A stretch of DNA of 37,510 nucleotides from Rozella allomycis CSF55 (taxonomy: Eukaryota): the NCBI GenBank assembly GCA_000442015.1, contig KE560703.1:1-37510 (forward strand), in the 5' to 3' direction. Of this stretch, positions 1,062 to 22,187 are shown piece by piece (the stretch's first letter is position 1; each line of letters starts with the position of its first letter). The notes below the pieces were generated by a model that worked only from the letters and a program-made list of their open reading frames with translations, did not search any database and was not told the origin of the DNA. The translations under genes were made by a program, and so were the position numbers.

Positions 1062-3340
1062 ATGGAGTTTGCCAAGGCGTTTGTCGAGTGTCATTACAGC
1101 AAAGAGTAAAATAGCGATAAATGTTGAATAGGCTAAAGGACAGTTCTCTTGAGAGTTTGGTTGGTGGGATCCCTGTGCGATACACTAATTTGGAGGCAGC
1201 CAAGATAAAGGACTGGCTAGTTTATGCTATAAAATTGAGTGAGACTAAAGAATTCAAAGATTTCCACGGTATGTTGGTTGATCTTGATAGACATTTGAAG
1301 TTTTATTCGTTTGTCGCGTTGGAAGAGATTAGTCTTCCGGATATTATTATTTTCGGGGTTATTAAGGGATGCGGAAAAAAGTTTGATCGTGGCCAGTTTG
1401 ACAATATTAGCCGCTGGTATGACTGGATGGCTGAATGTAAAGCTACCAAGGATGCTGCTGAGCTTTTGAAGAAGAGTTCGAATGGCAAGGCAAAGGACCA
1501 AGGAAAATTTGATATTGACTTGGCTGGCGCAGAGTTTGGAAAGGTGGTGACAAGATTCCCGCCTGAGCCATCAGGATACTTGCACATCGGACATGCCAAG
1601 GCTGCATTGTTGAATGAGTATTTTGCACATAGATATGGAGGTGAGTTGATTGTGAGATTTGACGATACGAATCCATCAAAGGAAAAGTGTGAATTTGAGG
1701 AATCTATTTTGGAAGATTTGACACTGTTGGGAGTGAAACATGATAGATTTTCGCATACATCTGACTATTTCGAGGATATGATTAAATTTGCTGAACAGTT
1801 GATTAAGCAAGGAGACGCGTATGTTGATGATACAGTTCAAGAGAAAATGAGAGAAGAGAGAATGAATGGAGTTGCTAGCAAGTGTAGAGACTTGAGTGTT
1901 GAAGAGAATTTGAGAGTATTTGAGGAAATGAAAAAGGCTAGTGAAGAAGGAATGAAGTATTGTTTGAGAGCCAAGATGAGTGTTGATGCGAAGAATAAAG
2001 CGTTGAGAGATCCAGTTATTTATAGAATCAATTTGCAGCCCCATCATAGAACAGGAAGTAAATGGAAAGTGTATCCTACTTATGACTTTGCATGTCCAAT
2101 AGTTGATAGTGTGGAAGGAGTGACGCATGCATTGAGAACAAATGAGTATCATGATAGAAATGATCAATATTATTGGTTTATTGAGAAATTGGGATTGAGA
2201 AAGCCGTTTATTTGGGATTACAGTAGAATAAATTTTGAATTTACTTTGCTTTCCAAGAGAAAGTTGACTTGGTTTGTTAATGAGAAGCACGTTGAGGGAT
2301 GGCATGATCCAAGATTTCCAACTGTTAGAGGAATAAGAAGAAGGGGAATGACTATTGAAGCATTGAAGGAATACATTTTAATGCAAGGTGCTTCAAAGAA
2401 CACATTGTTATTGAAGTGGGATAAGATTTGGGCTATTAATAAACAAAAGATTGATCCAATTGCTCCAAGACACACAGCGATTGAAAATGATTCAGTTGTT
2501 GCTAGAATAAGAGGCAATGTTATGAATTATTCCAAGGAAGTTTTAAAGCACAAGAAGAATCCAGAATTAGGATTCAAAACGACTGAATTTTCCAATGAAA
2601 TTTTAATTGATAAAGTTGATGTTGAAACATTCGAGTTGAATGAAGAAATAACTTTGATGGATTGGGGCAACGCCTTTGTTAGAAATTTGAGTCCATTAGA
2701 ATTAGAATTGCATTTAGAAGGAGATTTCAAAAAGACAAAGAAGAAAGTAACTTGGTTATCAAAATCAAAGAATCTGATTCCCGTTGAATTGAAAGATTTT
2801 GATTTCTTGGTTTCAAAGCCTAAATTGGAAGAAGAAGATTCATTTGAAGATTGTCTTGTTAAAGAAACTGAGTTTACAACGCTTGGACTTGCTGATGCTA
2901 ATGTTAAAGATTTGAAAAAGGGCGATATTATTCAGTTGGAGAGAAGAGGCTTTTTTATTGTTGATAAGCCTTTTGATGGCAATTCAGTTTGTTTTATTTT
3001 GATTCCAGATGGAAAGCCTCAATCTACTATGCCAAGGGGTTATGTTGAACCAAAGAAACCTGAAGTAAAGAAGAAGCAAGAAGGAAAGAAAGACTCTAAG
3101 AAACAAGAAGGAAACAAGGAATCAAAGGAAGCACCAAATAAGAACTCTAACAAGGAATCAAAGGAATCCAATAACAAGAACTCTAACAAGGAATCAAATT
3201 CAAAAAAGGAAGTAAAAAAAGAAGAAGAACAAGTGAAATCTGGAATGTATCAGCTGAGTCCATTCATTAAAGAGAGTGATTATTCATTCAATATGGATGA
3301 ATTGAAGAAAGTAGTTTACGATTTGAAACCTTTACATTAA
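1062..3340 (+). CDS. GUS1: Cytoplasmic glutamyl-tRNA synthetase with N-terminal GST-like domain
   Basis: Motifs TRFPPEPSGYLHIGHAKA (HIGH), RFDDTNP and LLSKRKL (KMSKS-equivalent). A likely true ATG at 1062 plus a 26-nt intron at 1106-1131 joins the ORF-track frame (MEFAKAFVECHYSKE|LKDSS). Confidence 0.95.
3113..3198 (+). repeat. 36-bp coding tandem repeat (about 2.4 copies) in the Lys/Glu/Asn/Ser-rich GluRS C-terminal linker
   Basis: AACAAGGAATCAAAGGAA occurs at 3113 and 3149; AAGAACTCTAACAAGGAATCAAA occurs at 3140 and 3176. Confidence 0.8.
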
Positions 3341-3426: not shown

Positions 3427-6400
3427 CTAAATGTTTGAAGCAAGAAGAGCGACACCATTTTGATAGAATGAATCAAAGCTTCCATCAGCAGGCAAATAAA
3501 CAACACAAATCAGTTCACTTCTGCTATTATCTCTGTACAATGGAACCTTGAGTTTATCGATGCAAGAATTATCATCACAAACCCAATCAACATAACTGTG
3601 AGGAACCAAATTCATTAATTCATTAGCCACTGAAATAGATCCATTTTGATTCACTTTGGCTCCAGAAAGATACAAATCTATTTATTAAACATTAAATATA
3701 TTTACTTGAAATGACTAGCGAATCATTTGATGGAATAAAGCTGAAATTCAAGCATAAATTTTCAAGAGAAACATTTAATTTCTTTGCGTATAATTGCCTT
3801 GAAGCAGTGAGGAACGCTTGAGGGTTGAAAAGACATCCAAAATCAATTTGCATCGTTTCATTCAAATTAGAAAAGTAAATGAATCTAGAGTTTAAATTAT
3901 TCAAGAATTTATCAAGAGAAATATTCTGAATTGGAAACATTTTCCATTCTAGTGGGATTTCAGCTGCATTGAAACAATTCAATAAAAATCTAGTTCTGTT
4001 TGTGTGTTTATCTTTTCTATCTAAAACTAATTTTAAACTATTCAAATCAAAAACAATTAAAGACAAAAGAGAATTACAAGTTTCAATTTGTCTATTAATA
4101 AAAGTTTCAATTGGATTTGAAGATTTGATTGATTTAATTTTGATATTTGAGAATTTGGTTAGATAATCGCTGATAGATTTGTAGATTGAATGGTTAGATT
4201 TAATTTGATCAGAATCTTCTTCTTCTTGCAACAAATTTGATAATTTTTTAACATTTTTAAAGATTGAATCTAGTTGGGATTTTAACATTGCAGTTTCAGC
4301 AAAGGGAGACAGACCAAGCAGAAGTGGATTTGTTGAATCTTTTAATTGATCAATCCAATCAAGATAATTTCTTCTTGGAATTTGAAGATTAAAAGTTAAA
4401 TATGAATCTGGTTGAAACATTTTAGGATTGAATAAATTAGATATAAAGGAATTGATGATTATTGAATCAAATTCATTATCAACTTTACCACCATAAACAA
4501 TTGAAGAGAGAATAGATTTAATTGAATCAAATGGAATTGAATTTGGATCAATGTTTGTTTTATTCTTGGCAATTTTATTAATTGAATTATTTATTAATTT
4601 AATAGCAAAATCATAATCAGAATCATTGAATTCATAATTCTTTGAGAAACCAATTGGAACATACAACAATCTCTCTTCAATAACAGATTGAAACCAAGAT
4701 AATAGAAATATCAATGTGTGTTTTTCAATTGGATTTGTAAAATGTTTTTCTTTGATTGTTGAATACAATGCAGCTTTAATTCCTGGTGGAGATTCAATCA
4801 AAACAATTCTCGAAATTCTAATTAATGAAACTGGAATTTTATTATTTTCAAATTGATTTAAATTGCATGTCATGAAAAGTTTACTTGATTTTGATTTAAA
4901 TGACAATTTTCTTTCCAATGTAGACAACCAATTAGAACAATGATGAATATTCTTCAACAATGTCCAATCTCCAGTAAAAGAAGAATTTAAAATTGATTTT
5001 TCTGCCAATTGAAATCCTTCATTTGATCCCATCGCTATCGTTGAAAGTTTAACGTTATTTTCATTGGCTAAATTTTCTATTCTATTAGATGCATCCATTC
5101 CCTTTGAACAAACTATTAAATAGATTTGATAATCTTCTTTAATACATTCACTTAAAATATCTTGTTTTTTATTATAAATTGAACATTTTAAATATTTTTC
5201 AATAAAATTTGAAATTTCAATCAACGCTTTTTCTGGTTTTGTAAATTTCATTTTTATTAATTCTGAAATTTCCTTTTCTATTTCTGAATTTTCCAAATTG
5301 TCTTTTTCATTCAACAAGAGTTTAATCAGCTCCACTCTTTCCCTTTTTAAATCTATTCCACTTTCAAATAATTCAAATTTGATTCCAGTTAACATTAACG
5401 CAAACAACACTTGATCATTAAAGGTCAAAGACTTGTAACATTTCTCATAAACTAACTGAAATAAATAATCTTTCAAATATTCAATTTTATCACCAGAATA
5501 TTCAACTTTAATAGCTTGAGAATAAATAGATTTAAAGAATTGAATAGAAAATTGATAAAAATGATTCAAACTCTCCATCTTTTCCATTAGAAAATAAATA
5601 CTAGATGCACATTTAGCAATTGGCAAATATTTCATAGTAATTGAATCAACTTGGTTCATAATAAAATCAGATTCATCATATTTTATTGTAATCTCTTTCA
5701 CTTGGTTCTTCAAATCTTCCAAAGAATCAATCAACTTATCATTATCAAGAATACTGCCTTGTGAATCATTCAAAGTCTGCAATAACTTCTTTTCTAAATT
5801 TCTCAAAACTAATTGATATTCCCCTTGCAGTTTCAAAATATCATTTCTCTTCTTTTCCATTTCTGGTTGTTCAGTCATCATTAGTTCATTCAAACATTGA
5901 GATTGCAAACTGGATTTGGTTACAGTGAAATTGGCAAACGTTACTCTGCTAGAAACATCTGGAGTAAACTTAAACGTTGGATCTCTAGTTATTAAATATA
6001 GTTGAAATGTCGGTGAGAAATCAATATCCTGATTACCTAATCTTACATTTAAACTGTTTAATTACCTAATATTAACTACAAACATTATATTTACCTATTC
6101 TAACAAGTACCCTTCCACCCGCTCTCTTATACTCTCTATTCAACAATGGATTAATAATAGGATCAATCATCTCAACATCTTCAACCACCAACGTATTCCC
6201 AAATCTAACACAACTCTCCAATGTCTTGACAAACGATTCATCCATAAAACTAGTAACATTCACATTCTGATTCAAATCACAAATCAGTTTCATCCCCTGG
6301 CCACTCGGATCAATAATCAATGGGTATCTCTTATGTCTCTTCATTATAATAGCATTCTCAATTGACACTTCATCATCAATTAAACTCTCCTTCCACTTCA

Positions 6401-9400
6401 TCCTCTCATCAACCAAACTCAAATACTCGCTAAAACTAAAATAATCTTTAAACACAATTCCAATCATCTTCATCACCCTCTTGCACTCTTTAAATATCTC
6501 TATTCTGTAATGCTGGTCATAATATCCATAATAACTCAACATCACACTAGACAGAAACACATCCCCTGATATAGTTTGCATTTGATTACCAAAATTTCTA
6601 CTCGTCTCTTCCCACCTCATCTTCTCTGATCCCAAATTGTCAATCAATTTCACAGATCTATCAACTCTAACTTGCACATTCTCCATTTCCTCTTTAATCT
6701 TTTGCGTCTCACTAATCAAAATGGCATATTCTTCTTTAATCACAGAAATATTAGACTCTAAATTCAATATTCTCTCTTCCATTTCATTAAACACTTTCCT
6801 AGTTTCATTTGCTTTTGATTCCAATTGCTCAACTTGGTTTCTCAATGGGCCAACTTTTTCTAAAATATCAGCAAAACTAATCTGCGCAATAACCCAACTG
6901 ACAAGGGGCCCACACGCTTTACTCGCTCTATTAACAGTTTCAAAATTAAACTGGGCATTATTCAAATACTCTCTTGATATCTTTTCTTTAATAATACTAG
7001 TTAAATGTTTATCTGTATCGAAATGTACAATAGAATTAATGAAATCATCTCTTCTTAGCACAGTTTGAACACTCTTCCATGAATCAACTTGATGCCCAAG
7101 TAGAATACAAACCGCCTCCATTGTCAATTTGACTGGATCTGGTGGATTTCCCATTGATCTCACTTCAGTCAATTGCTGCTTCTTTATATTGCTCACATTT
7201 TGTTTCGCTTCAATCACTGCAGGCTCAACCAGACTCAATTCTTCCATAACAAGTCTAGTTTGATTTTCAATGATCAATTGCTGTTGTTCCATTTCCTTCT
7301 TTATCACCAAACTCTTGGCTCTCTCTGATTCAGCTTCTTGCTGTTCTTTAACCATTCTCTGCAACTTTTCATTAGCTTCTCTATTCTTAATCTCCAACTG
7401 AATCTTCTTTTCTGCCAACTCTTTTTTCAACTCGGCAACCTTTTCAACAGTTTCAACTAGTTTATCTAATCCAACATTAACATGTCGTTGTTGATCTTCC
7501 AACTCTCCCCTCTTTTCATTGTACAGTTGAATGTAATGGTTCAATGATTCAACAAAATGTCTAGGCGTAATAAACATTTGCCTATTAAACAACTTGCAAT
7601 AATTTTTATTCATCTTTTTTATATAATTATGCACATGAACAAATATCAAAGCAATTTGGTAATACTTTGAATCAAAATTATACTTGATAATCTCCAAATC
7701 TTCAATCAACAAACTATCAACTAGAATTAAACAATAAAGAATTTCTTACAATTCCAAGTCAGAGCTTTATCATTTGAACTATTCAAATCCAATTTATTAA
7801 GAAATTCTAAGGCAACTTGAAACAATGAATTAGAGTTCCAATCACCAAACCAATCCAACACACATCTATTAAACAATGCAGGTGACGTTGAAGCTTTATT
7901 GTTATCTTCGCTTGGATTCATTGTAAACACAACATGCAAATTCAACATTATTTGATACGTAAACCATTTATACAATTCATCATGATTATCCAGCATTTGA
8001 CCTTGCTTTTGTGACGCTTCTTTAATCATTAACATTAATGAAGAGTATTCATCATCTTTAAATAACCCTGGTATCTCTGCATTAGCTAAAAGTGTATTAA
8101 TTCTTTCTAAAAATCCAGAATCTAAAACATTTGATTCATCAATGATAAAACAAATCTTTTCTCCTTTGCATCCACAGCGTTTCAAAATAGTTTTCAAATC
8201 TTCATCAAAATCTTCCATTTTGTATTTATTATGAACTTTCAATTGAACTATATTTAACCCATTCATCCACGCCACAAATTTAGACAATGTTGTTTTACCT
8301 TTTCATGAATAATATAAAGACTTACCACTTCCACTTGTTCCAATTAACAATAAATGACCTTGAATCTGTTTAAATACTCTATCAATTCTCAATACATGTT
8401 CCAAAACATCATCAAACAACACAATTGGAACATCCAACTCTTCTTCATAAAACACTTTCAATCTAGCTTTAACAAATTCTTTCAATTCTCTTCTTTCAAC
8501 TGAAATGTAATTCTTATTCAACCAATTAGAAAACAATATTGGTCTACTCAATGCTTTTTCATAATCAAAATTCTTGAAATTGTTTCTAGCCACTTGATCT
8601 ATTGTTTTATCAATCCATTCTCTTTCTTCTTTTCTGGTTAATCTATCACTAAACAATCTAATTCCTTCATGTGCCCAAATCCCTTTTAATATGTGACTAA
8701 TGTTGTTATTACTTGTGAGCATTTCCAATGTAACAAACTCCAATGGTTTAATACACTCATAAATACCTATCTTTATTCTAATGATTATTAATTACCTAAA
8801 TTGATTTAAACAATTTAAATTACCCCTCATCCATCTAGTTAATTCTCTGGGCGAGTAAATGTAATGATCTTGCACATTATCAGCTCCATTCTCACCTTGA
8901 CCATTCTCAACTACATTAATAGTAAACTTATTCTGATTCAACTCATAAAACTCAATCATAGCATCAGTCAGCGCATCCACATACATTCTCAAATTAGGAA
9001 TCATTTTCAACATGGATCTATTAAACGTGCCATAAATCTGCTTCAAACTAAATCTCTGCGGATACCCAACATACAACAACGGCGTATGTCTCAGAAACCT
9101 AATGGACAATGGCTTTCTACCTGTATCAGTCGGCGGGTTGCATGCACCTACAAATTGTATTCTTTCAATCCTTATAAACTGCTTGTCACTGGATCTCCAG
9201 AACCCACCTTGTTCAATCAGCTGACGCAGAAATGAAATAACTCGCTGCGTTCCATAGTCATCCTTGTTGGGTAGATTTATTTCATCGCAAAAGAGAATAA
9301 TCCATTGCCCTTCAGATGGAGGTGATAGAATTATTCCTTGGCTTGTCTTTCTGTATTCACAGTATTGCTCCAATGTTTTCAATATCATTTTTGGCAATGT

Positions 9401-12400
9401 TGCACTGCTGAAATTTAATGGAATCATTTGTATTTCTGGTAATTTTCTCAAAGCACTAAACAAGCACATTGTTTTTCCACTTCCTTTCATTAAGAGAATA
9501 ACCTTTTTGTACCTATGTTATTCCAAACTAATACAAATTACCTGGTGGACCACATAAAATGATTGGCTTATGCTCACTTAACCAAGAATACAATAAATCT
9601 TCATGCCTAATTGTATCAACAGTTGGAATAATAACATCCGCCTGCGACACCTTTTGTGTATCAACTTCAATTAATGGAACTTTGGTCTTCCAATACACCC
9701 ATTCACCCAATGGCAAACTACAATCAAATTCAATTAAATTATCTTCTGGTATTTCAATAATCGTAATCTTTTTCAAATATTCAAACAATTCATTTCTATT
9801 TTTAGAATCACCAACAAAACTCCACCTAAATTCAAACTGAAGAATTTAAATTTACATTAAAGAGATTAATAACTTTCTTTGAATGTATTTTTCCAATGTT
9901 TCTCTTGGCAAACTCATTTCATTTTGATAATTATAGATTAATACATTTCTAATACTCTTTTGAATTAAACCAAATAAAGTTTCAATCATTCTAATTTTTG
10001 ATATTTCCATAATATGATCCAAACTAGAACTTTTCTCCAACAATTTTGTTATCAATCCATCTTTAATAAAATATGGCGATAATATCTCAACACATTCTCT
10101 CTGCGTCTTTAAAATTGTTTCTTTATTAGTTTCTTCTAAATCATCTAAACATTTATTATTCAATTTATTAAAGAAATATTCATAAATGATATTCAATGGA
10201 ATAATTTCATCTGAATGGAAAATCATTCCACATCTACTAATTGTTGCTGGCGTTGCATAATTCAAATTCTCTACTTCAAATATAATTCTCACATTAAATG
10301 GTAAAGCTAATCGTTCCCCATTCGGTAGAGTCAAAACCTTTTCATTTCAAATTAATTCTAATTACCTTGTTGTCATCCAGAACAGAATTCAAATTCTCAA
10401 CCCATTCAGGATCAACATCACCATCAAACACAATCCAATGTCTTTTATTCATTTCTCCTCTAACATTATTAATAATTCTTCTCAATAGACTTGTAAACAA
10501 TCCATCGTTCCATTCACGTGTAGTTAAATCTAATGTTCCATACAAATCTTCTTTATTAACAGACTTTGGATCAATCACATACGAAACACTTTCAATTCCA
10601 TCAAACTGTTCCATTGATCTCAACAATGTTTTCCAACAAGATGATTTACCAGACCCTGATGGCCCAACAATCATTATTCCATGATGAATCTTTTGTATTT
10701 GATACAACTGAATAATCTTTTGAATCCACAAATCATAAGGTTGATAAAATGATTCTTTTCCAACTTTCTTGACAATATTCAATAATTCATCCATATTGGT
10801 TGATGAATATTTAATATTTGGAAATACATTATCCAGCAATTCTTCAAGCAAAGGTACATCTTGTCCAACAATCTTTGGCATCACTGTTTCAACCAAACTC
10901 TGCAGCAGTATTTTCAATTCTAATTCTTTTAAATTTGCATTTGAATTTATTTCCTTTAATTCTTTGTCACCACTACTACTGTCTCGTTTGATGTTGCCAG
11001 AACACGTTAAACAATTCTTCAATGCTCTCAACCCAAAATCATAATGACTCTGTTTACTCAACTGTTCATCACACAACTGAAACAACAACGTAACTTTTCT
11101 AGCCAACATTTCAGCATATTTGAATCCTTGTGAATACAACATTACTTGCGATATCATTTGATTGTCTGGTCTGGTCATTGCAACACTCTTGAACAGTTTC
11201 TTTAAATTATCTGGCAATTCAGATCTACCCAAGTAGCCTGGATTCATTGTAATAAATATTCCTGTATTTCCATTCACAATTATTCTCTTATTCAGCAATT
11301 CAATTTCCAAACCATTTGAATAATTTAAGGGTTTCAAATTATTTCTCATTGAACTATCACTTTCCCTTTCTAATCTACCTTCCGTTTCTCCATCTCCTTC
11401 TTGTTCACTTCTGATACCTTTAAGACAATTCTGAATAACTTCCACTTGCTGACTAACAGCCGACAAAATTTCAGGCTTCAATCTATTAAACTCATCAAAA
11501 CACCCAAATCCACCCACTTTGCATAATCCAATAAAGATTCTCCCCATTGCTTGAAAATCAAAATTCTCATCACAACAAAACACAAGCACAAATCTGCCCA
11601 GATGGTGGCCAAGTGATTTAACACTCTCAGTCTTGCCAGTTCCAGCTGGACCAAATGGCGACGCACCCAGCCCAGCATCTAATGCTAGTGCCAAAGTTTG
11701 GAAACATTTATTGGTGAGTGGTGTTTTGACTAGTCTGTCACAGACACCGAGGTATTCCCATCCATAATAGAATTTAGAATTTATCATTTCAATTGATAGT
11801 GATTTTAATGGATTTGATTCATTTAAAGTGAAATAATATCTTAACTGACTTGACCATTCAAAGGAATCTAAAATGATAAGACCATTGGAGTCTGTTAATA
11901 AGCTTTTACAAATATCTCTTTGATAGACACATTCTATAATTAAATTTTCAACCTTCTTTCTCAACAATGTGGAAATGTCAGTTAATACAATTTCAGATAA
12001 TTTATTCAACAAGTCATTAATAAAGGAAACAATATTATTCAATGGCATTTTAGATTCAACATTTCTAGTAAATGCTATTTGAAGAGTGAGAATGATCAAC
12101 TGATCTGGAGTATCATTTATCCACTCCATGAAAGAATTTAGAAAAGAAGAATCTATTTGAAACGAAGAAATAAATTACTTTCACTTTTATTCTCCTTCAA
12201 ACTACCCCTTTCACTTATAATACCCATTTCACCTACTACTTTCTTGTTGAACTCAAGTAGTGAATCGTGTAGTTTATAAACTAGAGTTGAATTGACTTGC
12301 ACTTCCAATTCACTCAACCACTCTGTAACCTTTCTATTATAACCAATTGGCGATTTCAACTGAATGACTTCCCCTTGCTTTGATTGAATACCATGAATAG

Positions 12401-15400
12401 CATTCTCATTAAACAATAGCGAATCAATGCCAGAAAACATCTTTTTGAAATGCTTTTGAATCTGATTAATATTCTTGTTATTCCCAACAATATCTAATAA
12501 ATCCAAATCACCAAGAAAATAAAAGCGAGGGAAATTTAATCTCTCTCGCTCTAAATAGTCACCCAGAGACTTTTGAATTCTGTTCAACATTTCTAGTAAT
12601 TTTTCCATTGATTTTTGAATGTGTGGAATATTTAAAACATTTAGAATTAAACTATTTTTAGAAACTTTTTTCATGATTGAAAAGAAATCAGTGTGGATGG
12701 ATTGAAATCTAGCAGACTCAACTGGCAATAAATGTTGAATGTCTGAATTGTCACTAAAAATACCTTCTAAATAGACCCATTGACGTTGAACATCAATCCA
12801 CACATCAAATAGTAATTGAATTTTAGTTAGTTTAGATTCCCAAATGATGCAATCTTGTTCAAATGGTTTAAAGAATGGAGAATTCTTCATTGATTTTAAA
12901 CCATTTAAATGTTCATTACATTTATTAAACAATTCATCCCAACCTTTTATGGTTTAAACATGTATTGTTACCTTTGATTAATTTACATTTATTTTGATAG
13001 TTTATTAAATCTAAATAATAATTTTCCCAAAATTCATTAATTTGTTTTAAATATTCTTCAATTGCTAATTCACCTTGCGATATTCTTAAAATTTCTTTTA
13101 AATCATTTTCATTTTTGTTTAAATTCCAAATAAATTTTAAATTCAAATCTGAAAATAAAATATTTGAAATATTTAAATTATTAAATAGAATTTTCCAATG
13201 TCTTTCTTTCATTGAAGGACCTTTTAAATCTATTAGAATTGAATTCATTTTAATAAATTCTTTAATCTTGTTGAATAGAAAATCAAAAGATTCGTATTGT
13301 TTAATTTTAAAAGGAATTTCTTTTAATTGATTTAAAATTGTTTCTAATTGATTTTTAACTCTTCTTGGAACAAAAACACTCCACAAAGTTTCACCAATTT
13401 CTTCAATTTGATTCCAATATAAACTTAAATTATCCCAAACTAATTTCACATCATTAAATTCTTCAATCAAATTATTTATTTTATCATTTTTATTTATTGT
13501 CAATTCCAATGCTTCTTTAGCTTTTAAAATTGATTCATTCTCTTCTTTAATCAAATTTAGTTTATTTTCAAATTCATTTAAATTGTTCAAAATATTTTTA
13601 AAATGAATTTTATCTCCTTTATCAACTTTAATTAAATTCCATTCTTTAATCAATTCATTCAAATTATTTTCATTTCCATTTTCTTTAACTAAAATTTGAT
13701 TCTTTAATTCATTCATTTTTTCTTTAATTATTTTATTTTTTCTTTCATAAATTTCATTTAAACAATCAAACTCTCCTTTAATCTGTTCAAAATAGATCCA
13801 TTCACTTGGAAAATTAAATTTATTATTTTCTAAAATTCTTAAACTAGATTTGAAATTTTCTAATCTATTTTCATACTCATTTTTATTCTTTTTAAACTTT
13901 TGAATCAATGAAATTAAATTTATTGCAAATTTTGATTCAATGGAATATTGTTCAATCTCTATTCTCAAATTAAATATTGTCTTGTAAAACTCTTTAATCT
14001 CTCTTCCAACTTGACTTCCAAACTCTTTAATCAATTCTCTTTCAATCTCCAAATATTTATTTTTAACCTTCTTTTCAATCTGTCCAAATTCTAATATAAA
14101 ATTTCCAATTATCTTTCTATTAAAATTTGTTTCAATCATTTTCCTATTCTTTTTAATCTCAATAAATATATTCTGCCATTTCTCCAAATCTACTCCCAAA
14201 TCTTTCTTTATTATCTCTTCAATATTAATCTCCCACAATGTCTCATAATTCTTAAACTCTTTCACAAATTTATTAATCTTTATCATTCTCTCCTGAATAA
14301 CAAAAATAGCCCTGGAAAACTCTTTAATTGATTTCTTTAACAATTCTTCAAATGTTTCTTCTGTATTCTCTACCTGGAATTCTCTAACTTTAATCTTTTT
14401 CAATTTACACACAACATCTATCATTAAACTATTAATAACTTTTTACTTGTAATTTCATACAGATTCTCAAACATCACTTTTCTAGCCATTTCAATTGGTG
14501 GTTGAATAATCAATTTATCATTCTTAAAAACTACCTTATGTCTAGACACAGCAGTTGCAATATGTGTATTAAAAGTATTAGAAACATGAGTGTCGACATT
14601 TCCATCTACTTCGCTGTCTAATAATTCATTTATTCCATTTATTTTCCCTGCTGCTTCTTCAACTAGCTCAAATCTCTTTATCCATCCAGAAATACCAACA
14701 TTCAACCTCTCCTTCAACAACTCACAAATTCTCTCATTCAATTTACACACATAAAACGGAACATTAGAAAATCCCTCCAAATTCATCTTATCAATCACAC
14801 CCTGGATCTCTCTCAATATTCTCTCAAACGTTTCCCTACAATACTCTACATTCTTCATCATCAAACTCTTCTCTTCAATCTCTTTAATCATCCCAATAGC
14901 AACCATCGTCTTTTCATTAAAATTATTAACAACATTATTCAAATCCCTAACAAACATCACATACCTATTTTCAACAACATTCATCGCTAAATATGCATTA
15001 ATGAAATTCTCCCACGTTATATTTATCCCCCTCTTCATCAGCTGCTGGAATTCACCCAAATAACAATCAACCAAATTTAAAACATCTTCATTCTCTCTAA
15101 TCATCGCCATCGTCTCATTATAACTATTCATCGTCTCCATCAATGACATCGCATGCGGATATATCCTCTTCCCATCCTTGGCTAAATTCATCACAGAATG
15201 CGGAATGGGCAAATTCATACTCTTCATATTCCTAACTTCTTTAAACAACGTAACCAATTGATACTCAAAAGATACATTCACTCTCAACAAATTCCCTACA
15301 CTCTTCTCAACCTTAAACACTCTCCCTTGTATGATCAATTCCTTTTTATTAATCTCTGCCAACCACGATTCAAATATCTTTTAAATCTAAATAAACTCCT

Positions 15401-17269
15401 TACTGGTTTAACATCCAATTTACGCATAAAATTTTGAATCTCATTAGACAACTTTGAGCCTTCTGTATACATTTCCCATCCTTTTCCCAACACATCTTCA
15501 ACTTTCTTCACTACAATCTCCAACTGTCGCTCAATTTGCTTGGCCCACATTATCGCACCAGAATAACTAGGAATGTCCCTAATCAAACTCAATTGTGCTG
15601 TATCTGAATTATGATACTCCATTGTAAACTTTTGCTGCAGCTGTTTAATATCCGCTTTTACATTCTCAATCAACTGGTTCTGATACTCTTGCACAGCACT
15701 TCTAATCTTTGGTCTCACAAATAGACTATTAAAATTAGCAAACGCTCTAAACATTTCAGTTGCATTCTTGGATCCAGATAATCTTTGTCGCAAAATAACT
15801 ATAATTTGATTCTCAATCTTTGATATTTGCTCATTGTAATTCATTTCTGCTAAATTCCACTGCTCAGCTCCTTCAACACTCAAATCCAACACATCAACAT
15901 TTTTCACACTCTCATAAGCCCTTTCAACATCTTCAACTGCCATCAACTCACTCTCAGACACCTTGGAAATCGTCAAATACAATTCTTCATGTTGTTTCCT
16001 AAAATTACTAATAAACACAATCTTTTCTTGAATTTTCAAATGCTTGTTAGTCATCTTCATTGTTAAAAACTTGTCTCCCCTCTTTCTGCCAATTTCTCTC
16101 GCCATTATTGAAAATTCTTGGAACTGATTCTCCCAAACTTCAAACACCTCCAAACAACTCTTCATCAACTGCTCAAACTCTTCATATCTCAAATACATCA
16201 ATCTCTTCTTCTTCAAGACTTTCATTATTTGTTCACTCAAATCACTGGAAATCGCTTCAACAAGCCCCAACGCTCTCTTCACTGGATATGGACTCAATTT
16301 CAACTTTTTAATTAAATGTCCAAATATCCCAAACAACGCCTCCTTGATCTTTTCCAAATCTTGAGCTGCCAGCAAATCAGACAACGGGAACTCTTTCATC
16401 AACTGATTATACTTCACAACCATCTCACTTGTCTCTTTCAACCCTGTATCCGCTAAAAATCCAACAGTCGCATGAAACCTCTTTGCATGCTTCAACACTT
16501 CCATAGTCAACACTATTCACAAATCAAAATTATTCTTACCAACATCATCATTCTTCAACTCTTGCTCAATTTGATTCAATGCCCTTTCCATATTCATCCA
16601 GAAATTAATCTCCTGACTAGCCGATCCAGACCCAACATCTCTATTCAATTTAGTCACCTTTTGAATCTCCTTTATCCACCCATTGACCTGTCCCTGCAAT
16701 CTAATCAAGAACGCAGAATCATTCAAAAGCTCTTCAGGCACATCATCAACACTCGCCCTCCTATTCTCATTCCTCGCTCTCTCCACAGCCTTCTTAATCT
16801 CCACATCAACACCCAACAACACTCTCGGGATATCCATATTCTCATGCAAATGCAACAACGCAATCTCCAACTCGGCCATCTTCTTCTTCGTCTGCGGCAC
16901 AATCCCGCTGCTCACCCCTCCCTCGCTCTCCTGCACAAACAAATCAAACATCGGAGACGCAAACCGATGGATACACGAAAATAAAACCTCAATCGCAGAG
17001 CCAGCCGGAACATACATGATCAACACCTGCGAATTTATCTCGGAACTCTCGTCAATACTCTGCTGCTTCTTGTACAACACACACCCCTCACACGCTTGCA
17101 CCGTGTTGTCCATAAACACCTCGCCGTCCCTGCTCCCAATAAAAAGAACAGGCGAATCTTGAATAAATAATTGGAGCTTCTCAGACTTTACACTTGATAA
17201 TAGAATATCTTGCTCACAGTTTAAAAGTGGTGGGACCACCCTCAAAATGTACTGCCGTAATTGTTCCAT
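3427..17269 (-). CDS. DYNC1H1: Cytoplasmic dynein 1 heavy chain, about 4463 aa, 13 intron positions
   Basis: P-loops GPAGTGKT (AAA1), GPSGSGKS (AAA2), GPPGSGKT (AAA3) and GTSGSGKT (AAA4); stalk/microtubule-binding domain ([13 protein letters not shown]); N-terminal tail. Ten single introns (26-30 nt, 278 nt total) and three double introns (173 nt total) leave 13392 nt, exactly 4464 codons. Confidence 0.96.
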
Positions 17270-20488: not shown

Positions 20489-22187
20489 ATGTCTAGTGCA
20501 GCTGTTAAACTCATTAACCCAGGAGCTGATGTTGCAAGAAGCAGCCAAACACTTCAAATTAATACGACCGCAGCCGGTGGATTACAAGAAGTTGTGAAAA
20601 CAAATCTTGGGCCTAAGGGGACACTGAAAATGTACCTAATGATTTAATAATTAAGAATAGGCTTGTTGGTGGAGCAGGAGATATCAAATGTACTAAAGAT
20701 GGAAAGGTATTATTGAATGAAATGGTAAAATTGTAAAGTCAAAAAGATAGCAAATCCAACACCCTACTGCAGCATTGATTGCCAGAGCTGCTACAGCGCA
20801 GGATGATATTACTGGGGATGGAACTACCACCATTGTATTAATGATTGGCGAATTGTTGAAAATGGCCAACAGATATTTAGCTGATGGACTGCATCCACGA
20901 GTCATTACTGAAGGGTTTGAAATTGCCAAGAATGAGGCATTAAAGCTTTTGGAAGAATTTAAGTTGAAAATAAACATTGATAGAGAAGTTTTGGTAAATG
21001 TTGCACGCGCCTCATTGCGTACAAAAGTTCATCGTGATTTGGCTGATGCGTTGACAGAGGCTGTTGTGGATGCTGTTTTGGCAATCAAGAAGGATGGAGA
21101 ACCAATTGATTTGCACATGGTTGAGATTATGAAAATGCAAAGGAATGCAGATACTGATACACGTTTAGTGAAAGGATTAGTAATGGATCATGGTGCTAGA
21201 CATCCCGATATGCCAAAGAGAGTTGAAAACGCATATATTTTAACATTGAACGTTTCTTTAGAATATGAAAAAACTGAAGTTAATTCTGGCTTCTTTTATA
21301 GTTCAGCAGAACAAAGGGAGAAACTTGTTGAATCTGAAAGAAAATTCATTGATGATAGAGTTAGAAAACTAGTAGAATTTAAAAAGCAAGTTTGTGATGG
21401 AACTGATAAATCCTTTGTTATTATTAATCAAAAGGGGATTGATCCTTTGTCTTTAGATATTCTTGCAAAGCATGGAATTTTAGCTCTTCGTCGTGCAAAA
21501 AGAAGAAATATGGAAAGATTACAATTAGCTTGTGGTGGAGTTGCTCAAAATTCAGTTGATGAACTCTCTCCTGAAGTCCTTGGATATGCTGGCCTTGTGT
21601 ATGAACAAGTTTTGGGCGATGATAAATTTACGTTTATTGAAAATGTTAAAAATCCATTATCAGTTTCAATTTTGATTAAAGGGCCAAATTCTCACACTTT
21701 AACTCAAATTAACGACGCTGTTAGAGATGGATTGAGAGCTGTTAAAAATGCTATTGAAGATAACTCTGTGGTACCTGGAGCTGGTGCTTTCAATGTTGCA
21801 GCTTATAACCATTTAATGAAATTCAAAGATAGCGTCAAAGGGCGTGCAAAGTTTGGTGTCGATGCTTACGCCCAAGCTCTTTTGGTAATTCCAAAAACTC
21901 TCGCTGCCAATGCTGGTTTAGACGTTCAAGATGCTATTGTCGCTGTCCAAGAAGCTGCCTCTAATGGTCATGTTGCTGGCTTGGATCTTTCCACTGGAGA
22001 AGCCATGGATCCAGCTGTTGAAGGTATTTGGGACAACTATCGTGTTCATCGCCATATTTTACATTCAAGGTAACATTTCTTATAATTAATTTCTAGTACT
22101 GTTATAGCAAGCAATCTTTTGTTGGTTGATGAAATGATGAGAGCAGGAAGATCTTCCTTGAAAACGTCAAGTATTCCAAATAATTAA
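20489..22187 (+). CDS. CCT6: Chaperonin CCT/TRiC subunit zeta (3 introns)
   Basis: [51 protein letters not shown] and C-terminal [10 protein letters not shown]. Confidence 0.96.

Follow-up and report, generated by a model that had tools for sequence, protein, structure and literature searches.

The AAA3 Walker A motif of a cytoplasmic dynein heavy chain gene in the fungus-like parasite Rozella allomycis CSF55 is interrupted by two complete minimal introns that stand end to end. This double intron is a real feature of the gene and one member of a genome-wide class of intron chains (here called trains), whose units appear to be spliced out one after another in what would be a novel form of recursive splicing. 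We analyzed it in a stretch of 37,510 nucleotides, the window (GenBank assembly GCA_000442015.1, contig KE560703.1, positions 1 to 37,510). On the minus strand, 58 nt (9541 to 9484) divide CGPPG from SGKT and consist of two abutting 29-nt units of the form GTA...AG, with zero bases between them. The first-pass annotation had described two such units meeting at AG|GT, and its coordinates (9541 to 9513 and 9512 to 9484) were exact. The 5' unit (9513 to 9541) has a GTAA donor and a TAG acceptor, and its 3' end, TAAC-A-TAG, is of the type found in non-terminal units. The 3' or terminal unit (9484 to 9512) has a GTAC donor and an AAG end, as do many single introns. The central AG|GT (9511 to 9514) forms a zero-nucleotide exon; the 5' junction has AGGTA in common with it, and the 3' junction AGG. 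The A at 9518, position -6 of the 5' unit, resembles a branch point and may act as one. Both units have the GT..AG ends of U2-type introns, and the genome contains a U2 snRNA with GUAGUA.

The outer junctions are fixed by the protein. The upstream exon (9542 to 9825, minus strand) ends in phase 1 within the AAA3 Walker A motif, after CGPP and a G, and the downstream exon (8824 to 9483, minus strand) starts with (G)SGKT and encodes AAA3 (Pfam AAA_7) and its lid. CGPPGSGKTM is read in 118 of 119 non-self homologues. When all GT/GC..AG removals between 9600 and 9421 were tried, the motif was restored solely by taking out 9541 to 9484, as expected from the earlier proposal that GPPGSGKT sets both outer boundaries. 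Single-intron and micro-exon alternatives at the site were also considered, and none restored the motif. A profile alignment that was blind to splice signals (36 non-Rozella fungal dyneins) likewise placed a 58-nt insert at Walker A. Retention of either unit leads to a stop within 4 to 7 codons.

The host gene (3427 to 17269, minus strand) was modeled with 11 single introns and three doubles, giving 4,453 amino acids plus a stop codon, with the start at 17269 taken from a gene-finder prediction. The spliced model is open for all 4,453 codons, with zero internal stops. It encodes dynein motor domains, has cytoplasmic dyneins as its best matches, and carries CGPPGSGKT in AAA3; the top protein match is 100% identical and labeled Rozella allomycis by NCBI. 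The single introns, all on the minus strand and 26 to 30 nt long, have their 5' ends at 16539, 15403, 14446, 12971, 12178, 10365, 9855, 8712, 8325, 7749, and 3705. The second double intron (8767 to 8823, minus strand) has units of 28 and 29 nt, and the third (6037 to 6094, minus strand) has two units of 29 nt; the first-pass annotation had overlooked both. The signal-free profile alignment, with free DNA gaps, recovered the total lengths of all three doubles (58, 57, and 58 nt) from homology alone. In each of them, retention of a single unit, whichever it is, brings an early stop. The 30-nt intron at 8683 to 8712 (minus strand) is in frame and without a stop, and an NCBI protein (P0001) treats it as coding; upstream of the second double, about 30 residues are also missing from this protein. 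Ordinary neighbors of the gene in the window are a glutamyl/glutaminyl-tRNA synthetase (1121 to 3340, plus strand) and a TCP-1 chaperonin (20751 to 22073, plus strand).

To place the double intron among other introns, we surveyed inserts in the window gene and in 16 stretches of eight further dynein genes (a set of dynein genes, not a random gene sample). The further stretches were aligned to their best non-self homologues in the same way as the window gene to the profile, with free DNA gaps and no use of splice signals. The alignments returned 140 inserts, and we retained the 104 whose flanks were strong and which had no indel close by. The 36 weakly placed inserts that were left out include two trains (85 and 89 nt), long inserts without GT..AG ends, and four inserts of 37 to 41 nt, each judged by eye to combine one single intron with 9 to 12 coding bases. 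The retained set comprised 72 single introns of 26 to 31 nt, 4 short mis-sized inserts, and 28 inserts longer than 33 nt. Twenty-three of these 28 are trains of two to five abutting 26- to 31-nt units, and their lengths rise in whole steps (15 at 56 to 59 nt, 5 at 84 to 87 nt, 2 at 116 to 119 nt, and 1 at 148 nt). The other five are three in-frame coding inserts (multiples of three) without GT..AG ends and two N-bearing inserts that repeat flanking sequence. With shuffled interiors, only 0.42 of the 23 trains would be expected to split wholly into units. The 28 well-placed inserts above 33 nt in the nine dynein genes thus included no plain long intron.

Trains also occur outside the dynein genes. 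In a pattern search of the genome, runs of abutting units were present on many contigs, although the raw two-unit pattern was not enriched genome-wide (365 matches versus 521 in a reversed control). Chains reach seven units in a gene on the minus strand of L029 (G000:C332), which we take to be SMC-like from our reading of the sequence. It has trains of 7, 5, and 6 units (702 to 909, 1563 to 1710, and 2594 to 2766), in which related units alternate. We also ran an ab initio intron finder with a flat length prior over 771 kb. The finder called 478 introns, with peaks at 26 to 31 nt (296 calls) and 57 to 60 nt (23 calls). Among its long calls, which were too noisy to test the length steps, 103 were unexplained by single short introns, and 24 of these could be decomposed into units. 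Most of the undecomposed long calls are flanked by weak exons and appear erroneous, and a true long intron elsewhere in the genome is possible. One 59-nt call (L042, minus strand, offset 2389) contains N and has a 6-nt exon end repeated between two intron-like units; this is either an assembly fault or a duplication captured along with a micro-exon. In the dynein genes (L079-L092, L032, and L033), trains account for 23 of 95 introns, compared with 2 to 3 trains seen in 460 kb of unselected stretches (L059-L078 and L093-L118). A pattern search of metagenome contigs for related loci gave 53 matches, of which 0 were confirmed.

We next compared the inner junctions with the interiors of the units. 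The AG|GTA is intact at all 35 inner junctions of the 23 dynein trains, including 26 junctions whose flanking units resemble each other no more than unrelated single introns do. Under neutral decay from identical copies, about 4.3 intact junctions would be expected. The Walker A pair is the least alike of the 35 neighbor pairs (0.24, against a background of 0.49). Its ungapped identity of 10/29, which the first-pass annotation had read as a sign of unrelated halves, lies below that of interior shuffles with fixed ends (12.6 ± 2.2), and the gapped score of the two units is also below the shuffle mean. By sequence comparison, the halves thus appear to be without a kinship signal, being no more alike than shuffles.

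Non-terminal units also differ from other introns at their 3' ends. The acceptor is TAG in 34 of 35 non-terminal units; the corresponding counts are 8 of 23 for terminal units and 43 of 72 for single introns. Aligned at the 3' end, non-terminal units have A at -7 in 83% and at -6 in 74% of cases, and G is absent from -6 to -3. Overall, they are richer in G than terminal units (0.16 versus 0.09). The ending TAA-N2/3-NAG, a motif defined post hoc on the dynein data and counted in one unit per train, is carried by 17 of 23 first units. Terminal units have it in 4 of 23 cases and singles in 7 of 72, with no difference between these two groups. For replication we used 23 of the 36 chains seen in non-dynein stretches, a set that was chosen by splice signals, includes related units, and holds at least one likely false chain. 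In this set, first units exceeded terminal units in TAG acceptors (22/23 versus 9/23) and in the lack of G at -6 to -3 (23/23 versus 15/23). The difference in the TAA motif was marginal (10/23 versus 3/23; P = 0.047), with 1 of 82 among ab initio singles, and a simpler test of A-7/A-6 against terminal units was not significant (P = 0.28). The 5' unit at Walker A matches the non-terminal class. Taken across the 35 junctions and the 23 further chains, these statistics support selection on the inner sites. The first-pass annotation had offered selection on the internal site or independent insertion, and the former is the better supported of the two given the 35 of 35 intact junctions (versus 4.3) and the distinct non-terminal 3' end.

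These patterns bear on whether the 58 nt might instead be a single intron that is removed in one step, with the inner AG|GT left as a duplication relic or a product of chance. Introns of 58 nt are readily spliced in other fungi, and an NCBI protein from another assembly runs continuously across CGPPGSGKTM, which is compatible with either route. Against one-step removal, the inner junctions are intact far beyond the neutral expectation, none of the 15 well-placed inserts of 56 to 59 nt lacks an inner AG|GT, and no retained insert in the dynein survey has a length between the unit steps. Moreover, the inner acceptors are stricter than the terminal ones. A relic would drift toward random sequence, and constraint on the inner sites exceeds that on functional single introns, which makes the relic reading unlikely.

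We consider it likely that the Walker A double is a two-unit train of minimal introns that arose by microhomology duplication, is kept by selection, and is removed stepwise by a length-limited spliceosome. The Rozella spliceosome would be limited to introns of about 26 to 31 nt, and a longer interruption could persist only as a chain of units of that size. The first GT would pair with the sole AG at a suitable distance; in all 23 trains, exactly one AG lies 25 to 33 nt from the first GT. Removal of the first unit would fuse the AG of the exon to the next GT and so remake a donor (the upstream exon ends in G in 23 of 23 trains), after which the final unit would behave as an ordinary intron. Selection would maintain each AG|GT and each unit length while the interiors drift, and such drift could leave unrelated halves like those at Walker A. 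Non-terminal units would meanwhile be reshaped to TAA-N2/3-TAG ends, possibly because such an acceptor is followed by, and overlaps with, another donor instead of an exon. The most likely order of removal is 5' to 3'. A special 3' signal is needed only for units that still abut the next donor; if the last unit were removed first, each unit would in turn face an exon like any intron, and no special signal would be needed. A stronger version of the proposal, to which we commit only tentatively, is that the spliceosome may have an upper limit of about 33 nt per removal step. Longer introns would then be obligatory recursive chains, a fused branch point and acceptor would set the 5'-to-3' order, and units would be gained and lost whole at G|G sites.

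The Walker A interruption has an acceptor AG followed directly by a donor GT and would thus work like recursive splicing at a zero-nucleotide exon. According to a published account (PMC8605326), known ratchet points are found mainly within long introns and require a cryptic exon, about 50 nt in length, that is followed by a donor of its own. As in Drosophila and vertebrate ratchet points described there, the Rozella sites have an acceptor and then directly a donor, conserved amid unconserved sequence, and the mRNA would keep nothing of them. In contrast to those sites, the Rozella segments are all minimal introns of 26 to 31 nt, too short to accommodate a cryptic exon, and duplication seems to be the way in which the chains lengthen. 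A ratchet point of the Drosophila type as defined in that source was therefore rejected for a 58-nt host with a second unit of 29 nt. In Schizosaccharomyces pombe, spliceosome profiling identified two zero-length exons, one of them in a 336-nt intron hosting a snoRNA (10.1101/226894). These also have a 3' site adjoining a 5' site within a fungal intron, whereas in Rozella there are 23 trains in nine genes plus 23 chains elsewhere, which interrupt coding genes and are built from units of fixed length. Fungal stwintrons are likewise complex intervening sequences of U2 introns that are removed by consecutive reactions, and small duplications have been proposed as their origin (PMC7138796). They are nested, unlike the Rozella units, which are in series and each have GT and AG intact, and we rejected a stwintron on this ground.

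The A at -6 has parallels in other organisms with short introns or short branch-to-acceptor distances. In the 15-nt introns of Stentor, the branch A is at position 10 of 15, which is -6 (PMC9505925), and Yarrowia lipolytica has a branch-to-AG distance of 2 nt, which also puts the A at -6 (PMC2483917). The position is the same as in the non-terminal units of Rozella, but it is a feature of most introns in those species, and in Rozella it marks non-terminal units (17 of 23) and seldom occurs in singles (7 of 72). Chains are not mentioned in the accessible text of either source. The same holds for two sources that mention Rozella introns (PMC8476143 and PMC6349667, in the parts available), the latter of which describes two S23 introns of about 30 nt without conserved branch-point motifs. 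A literature search that covered few subscription journals, partly at the level of excerpts, yielded no description of intron chains of this kind in Rozella or elsewhere, and a search on recursive splicing in Cryptococcus also yielded nothing.

If stepwise removal is correct, recursive splicing would be a necessity in a genome of tiny introns and not just a device of very long ones, and the spliceosome would be able to choose an acceptor that lacks an exon behind it. Under the stronger version, intron length in this genome would change in whole steps, with a splicing code for two classes of unit. The contrast between non-terminal and terminal units yields a sharp prediction on the order of removal and the branch point. 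The trains would also offer many young and old cases of intron gain by duplication in a single culturable organism. Annotation conceals such chains as ordinary introns of 57, 86, or 116 nt.

The origin of the trains is suggested by their flanks and by the similarity of neighboring units. Trains are flanked by AG|G in 18 of 23 cases versus 17 of 72 singles and by G|G in 22 of 23 versus 30 of 72. An intron at such a site is bounded by a short direct repeat, which favors duplication or deletion of exactly one unit, and the G|G bias points to a mutational cause. Under the proposed mechanism, AGG(T) microhomology at the two ends of an intron in an (A)G|G context would lead to its duplication and so start a train, and whole units could be gained and lost by the same route. 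Of the unit pairs within trains, 6 of 52 are at least 0.8 alike, compared with 0 of 1,601 pairs taken across trains, and near-identical neighbors form patterns such as A A' B B'. In doubles, similarity to the unit's own partner is 0.54 versus 0.49 to others. Sequence comparison thus supports duplication of whole units, followed by divergence, as the general source of trains. For the Walker A pair itself, duplication is unproven, as the two units bear no trace of common descent, and independent insertion is possible.

The number of units at the Walker A column varies. The window has two, and a 581-nt contig (L007; G000:C77) that carries a second cytoplasmic dynein copy (68% amino acid identity) has three at the same profile column. 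In this triple (205 to 292), the first and third units are 0.85 alike. L007 and a further contig (L119; G000:C1023) are pieces of a second cytoplasmic dynein, 67 to 68% identical in amino acids to that of the window and with a 28-nt intron in common; they may represent a paralogue, a remnant, or another organism. A contig from a further data set, X6, is exactly 29 nt shorter somewhere within 9269 to 9711 and may represent a one-unit state at Walker A (its depth is 4, and it has 18 other differing letters, with 6.5 expected).

Removal could also be stepwise with the 5' unit being a complete foreign intron, inserted at the exon|intron junction as an introner-like element or by reverse splicing and reverse transcription. 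The unrelated halves would fit such an insertion, as would the distinct 3' motif and higher G content of non-terminal units and the perhaps one-unit state of X6. On the other hand, the best matches of the Walker A units among 370 introns (0.72 and 0.68) are at chance level, no second genomic copy of the stretch was found in a search that is weak for 29-mers, and near-identical units are confined to the insides of trains. We regard a foreign origin as improbable. The designation introner or introner-like element was likewise rejected, since no near-identical copies were found at unrelated sites (370 introns and the same genome search, weak for 29-mers).

Alternatively, trains might be maintained for regulation, with the extra rounds of splicing delaying the message and half-spliced forms being frameshifted and destroyed. 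The early stop caused by one retained unit at any of the three doubles points in this direction, as does the concentration of trains in dynein genes and their rarity elsewhere. However, the unit number is variable at one site, the flank bias points to a mutational cause, and weak selection in long, little-expressed genes would cluster trains equally. Regulation as the main reason for the trains seems quite doubtful, although a regulatory purpose is compatible with stepwise removal of duplicated units and does not compete with it exclusively.

An assembly artifact or a dead gene is hardly credible despite two N-bearing false duplications in other dynein genes of the assembly, because the two halves are not copies of each other, the spliced reading frame is uninterrupted throughout, and two contigs cross the Walker A site without differences. 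One of these (X5; 9441 to 10046) comes from a second sample and study, and the other (X2; 6460 to 15938) possibly derives from the source run; both show 0 differences from the window, and the duplication artifact that the first-pass annotation had argued against is thereby ruled out. An RNA run (X8) provided only short pieces over the window, most of them less than 90% alike. Elsewhere in the gene, an X5 allele lacks one nucleotide each at 6042 and 6048, both within the 3' unit of the double at 6037 to 6094. An X6 contig over 5067 to 5515 (depth of 5.5) has 30 extra letters where the exon of the window is unbroken, perhaps an intron that is present in a relative and absent from the window.
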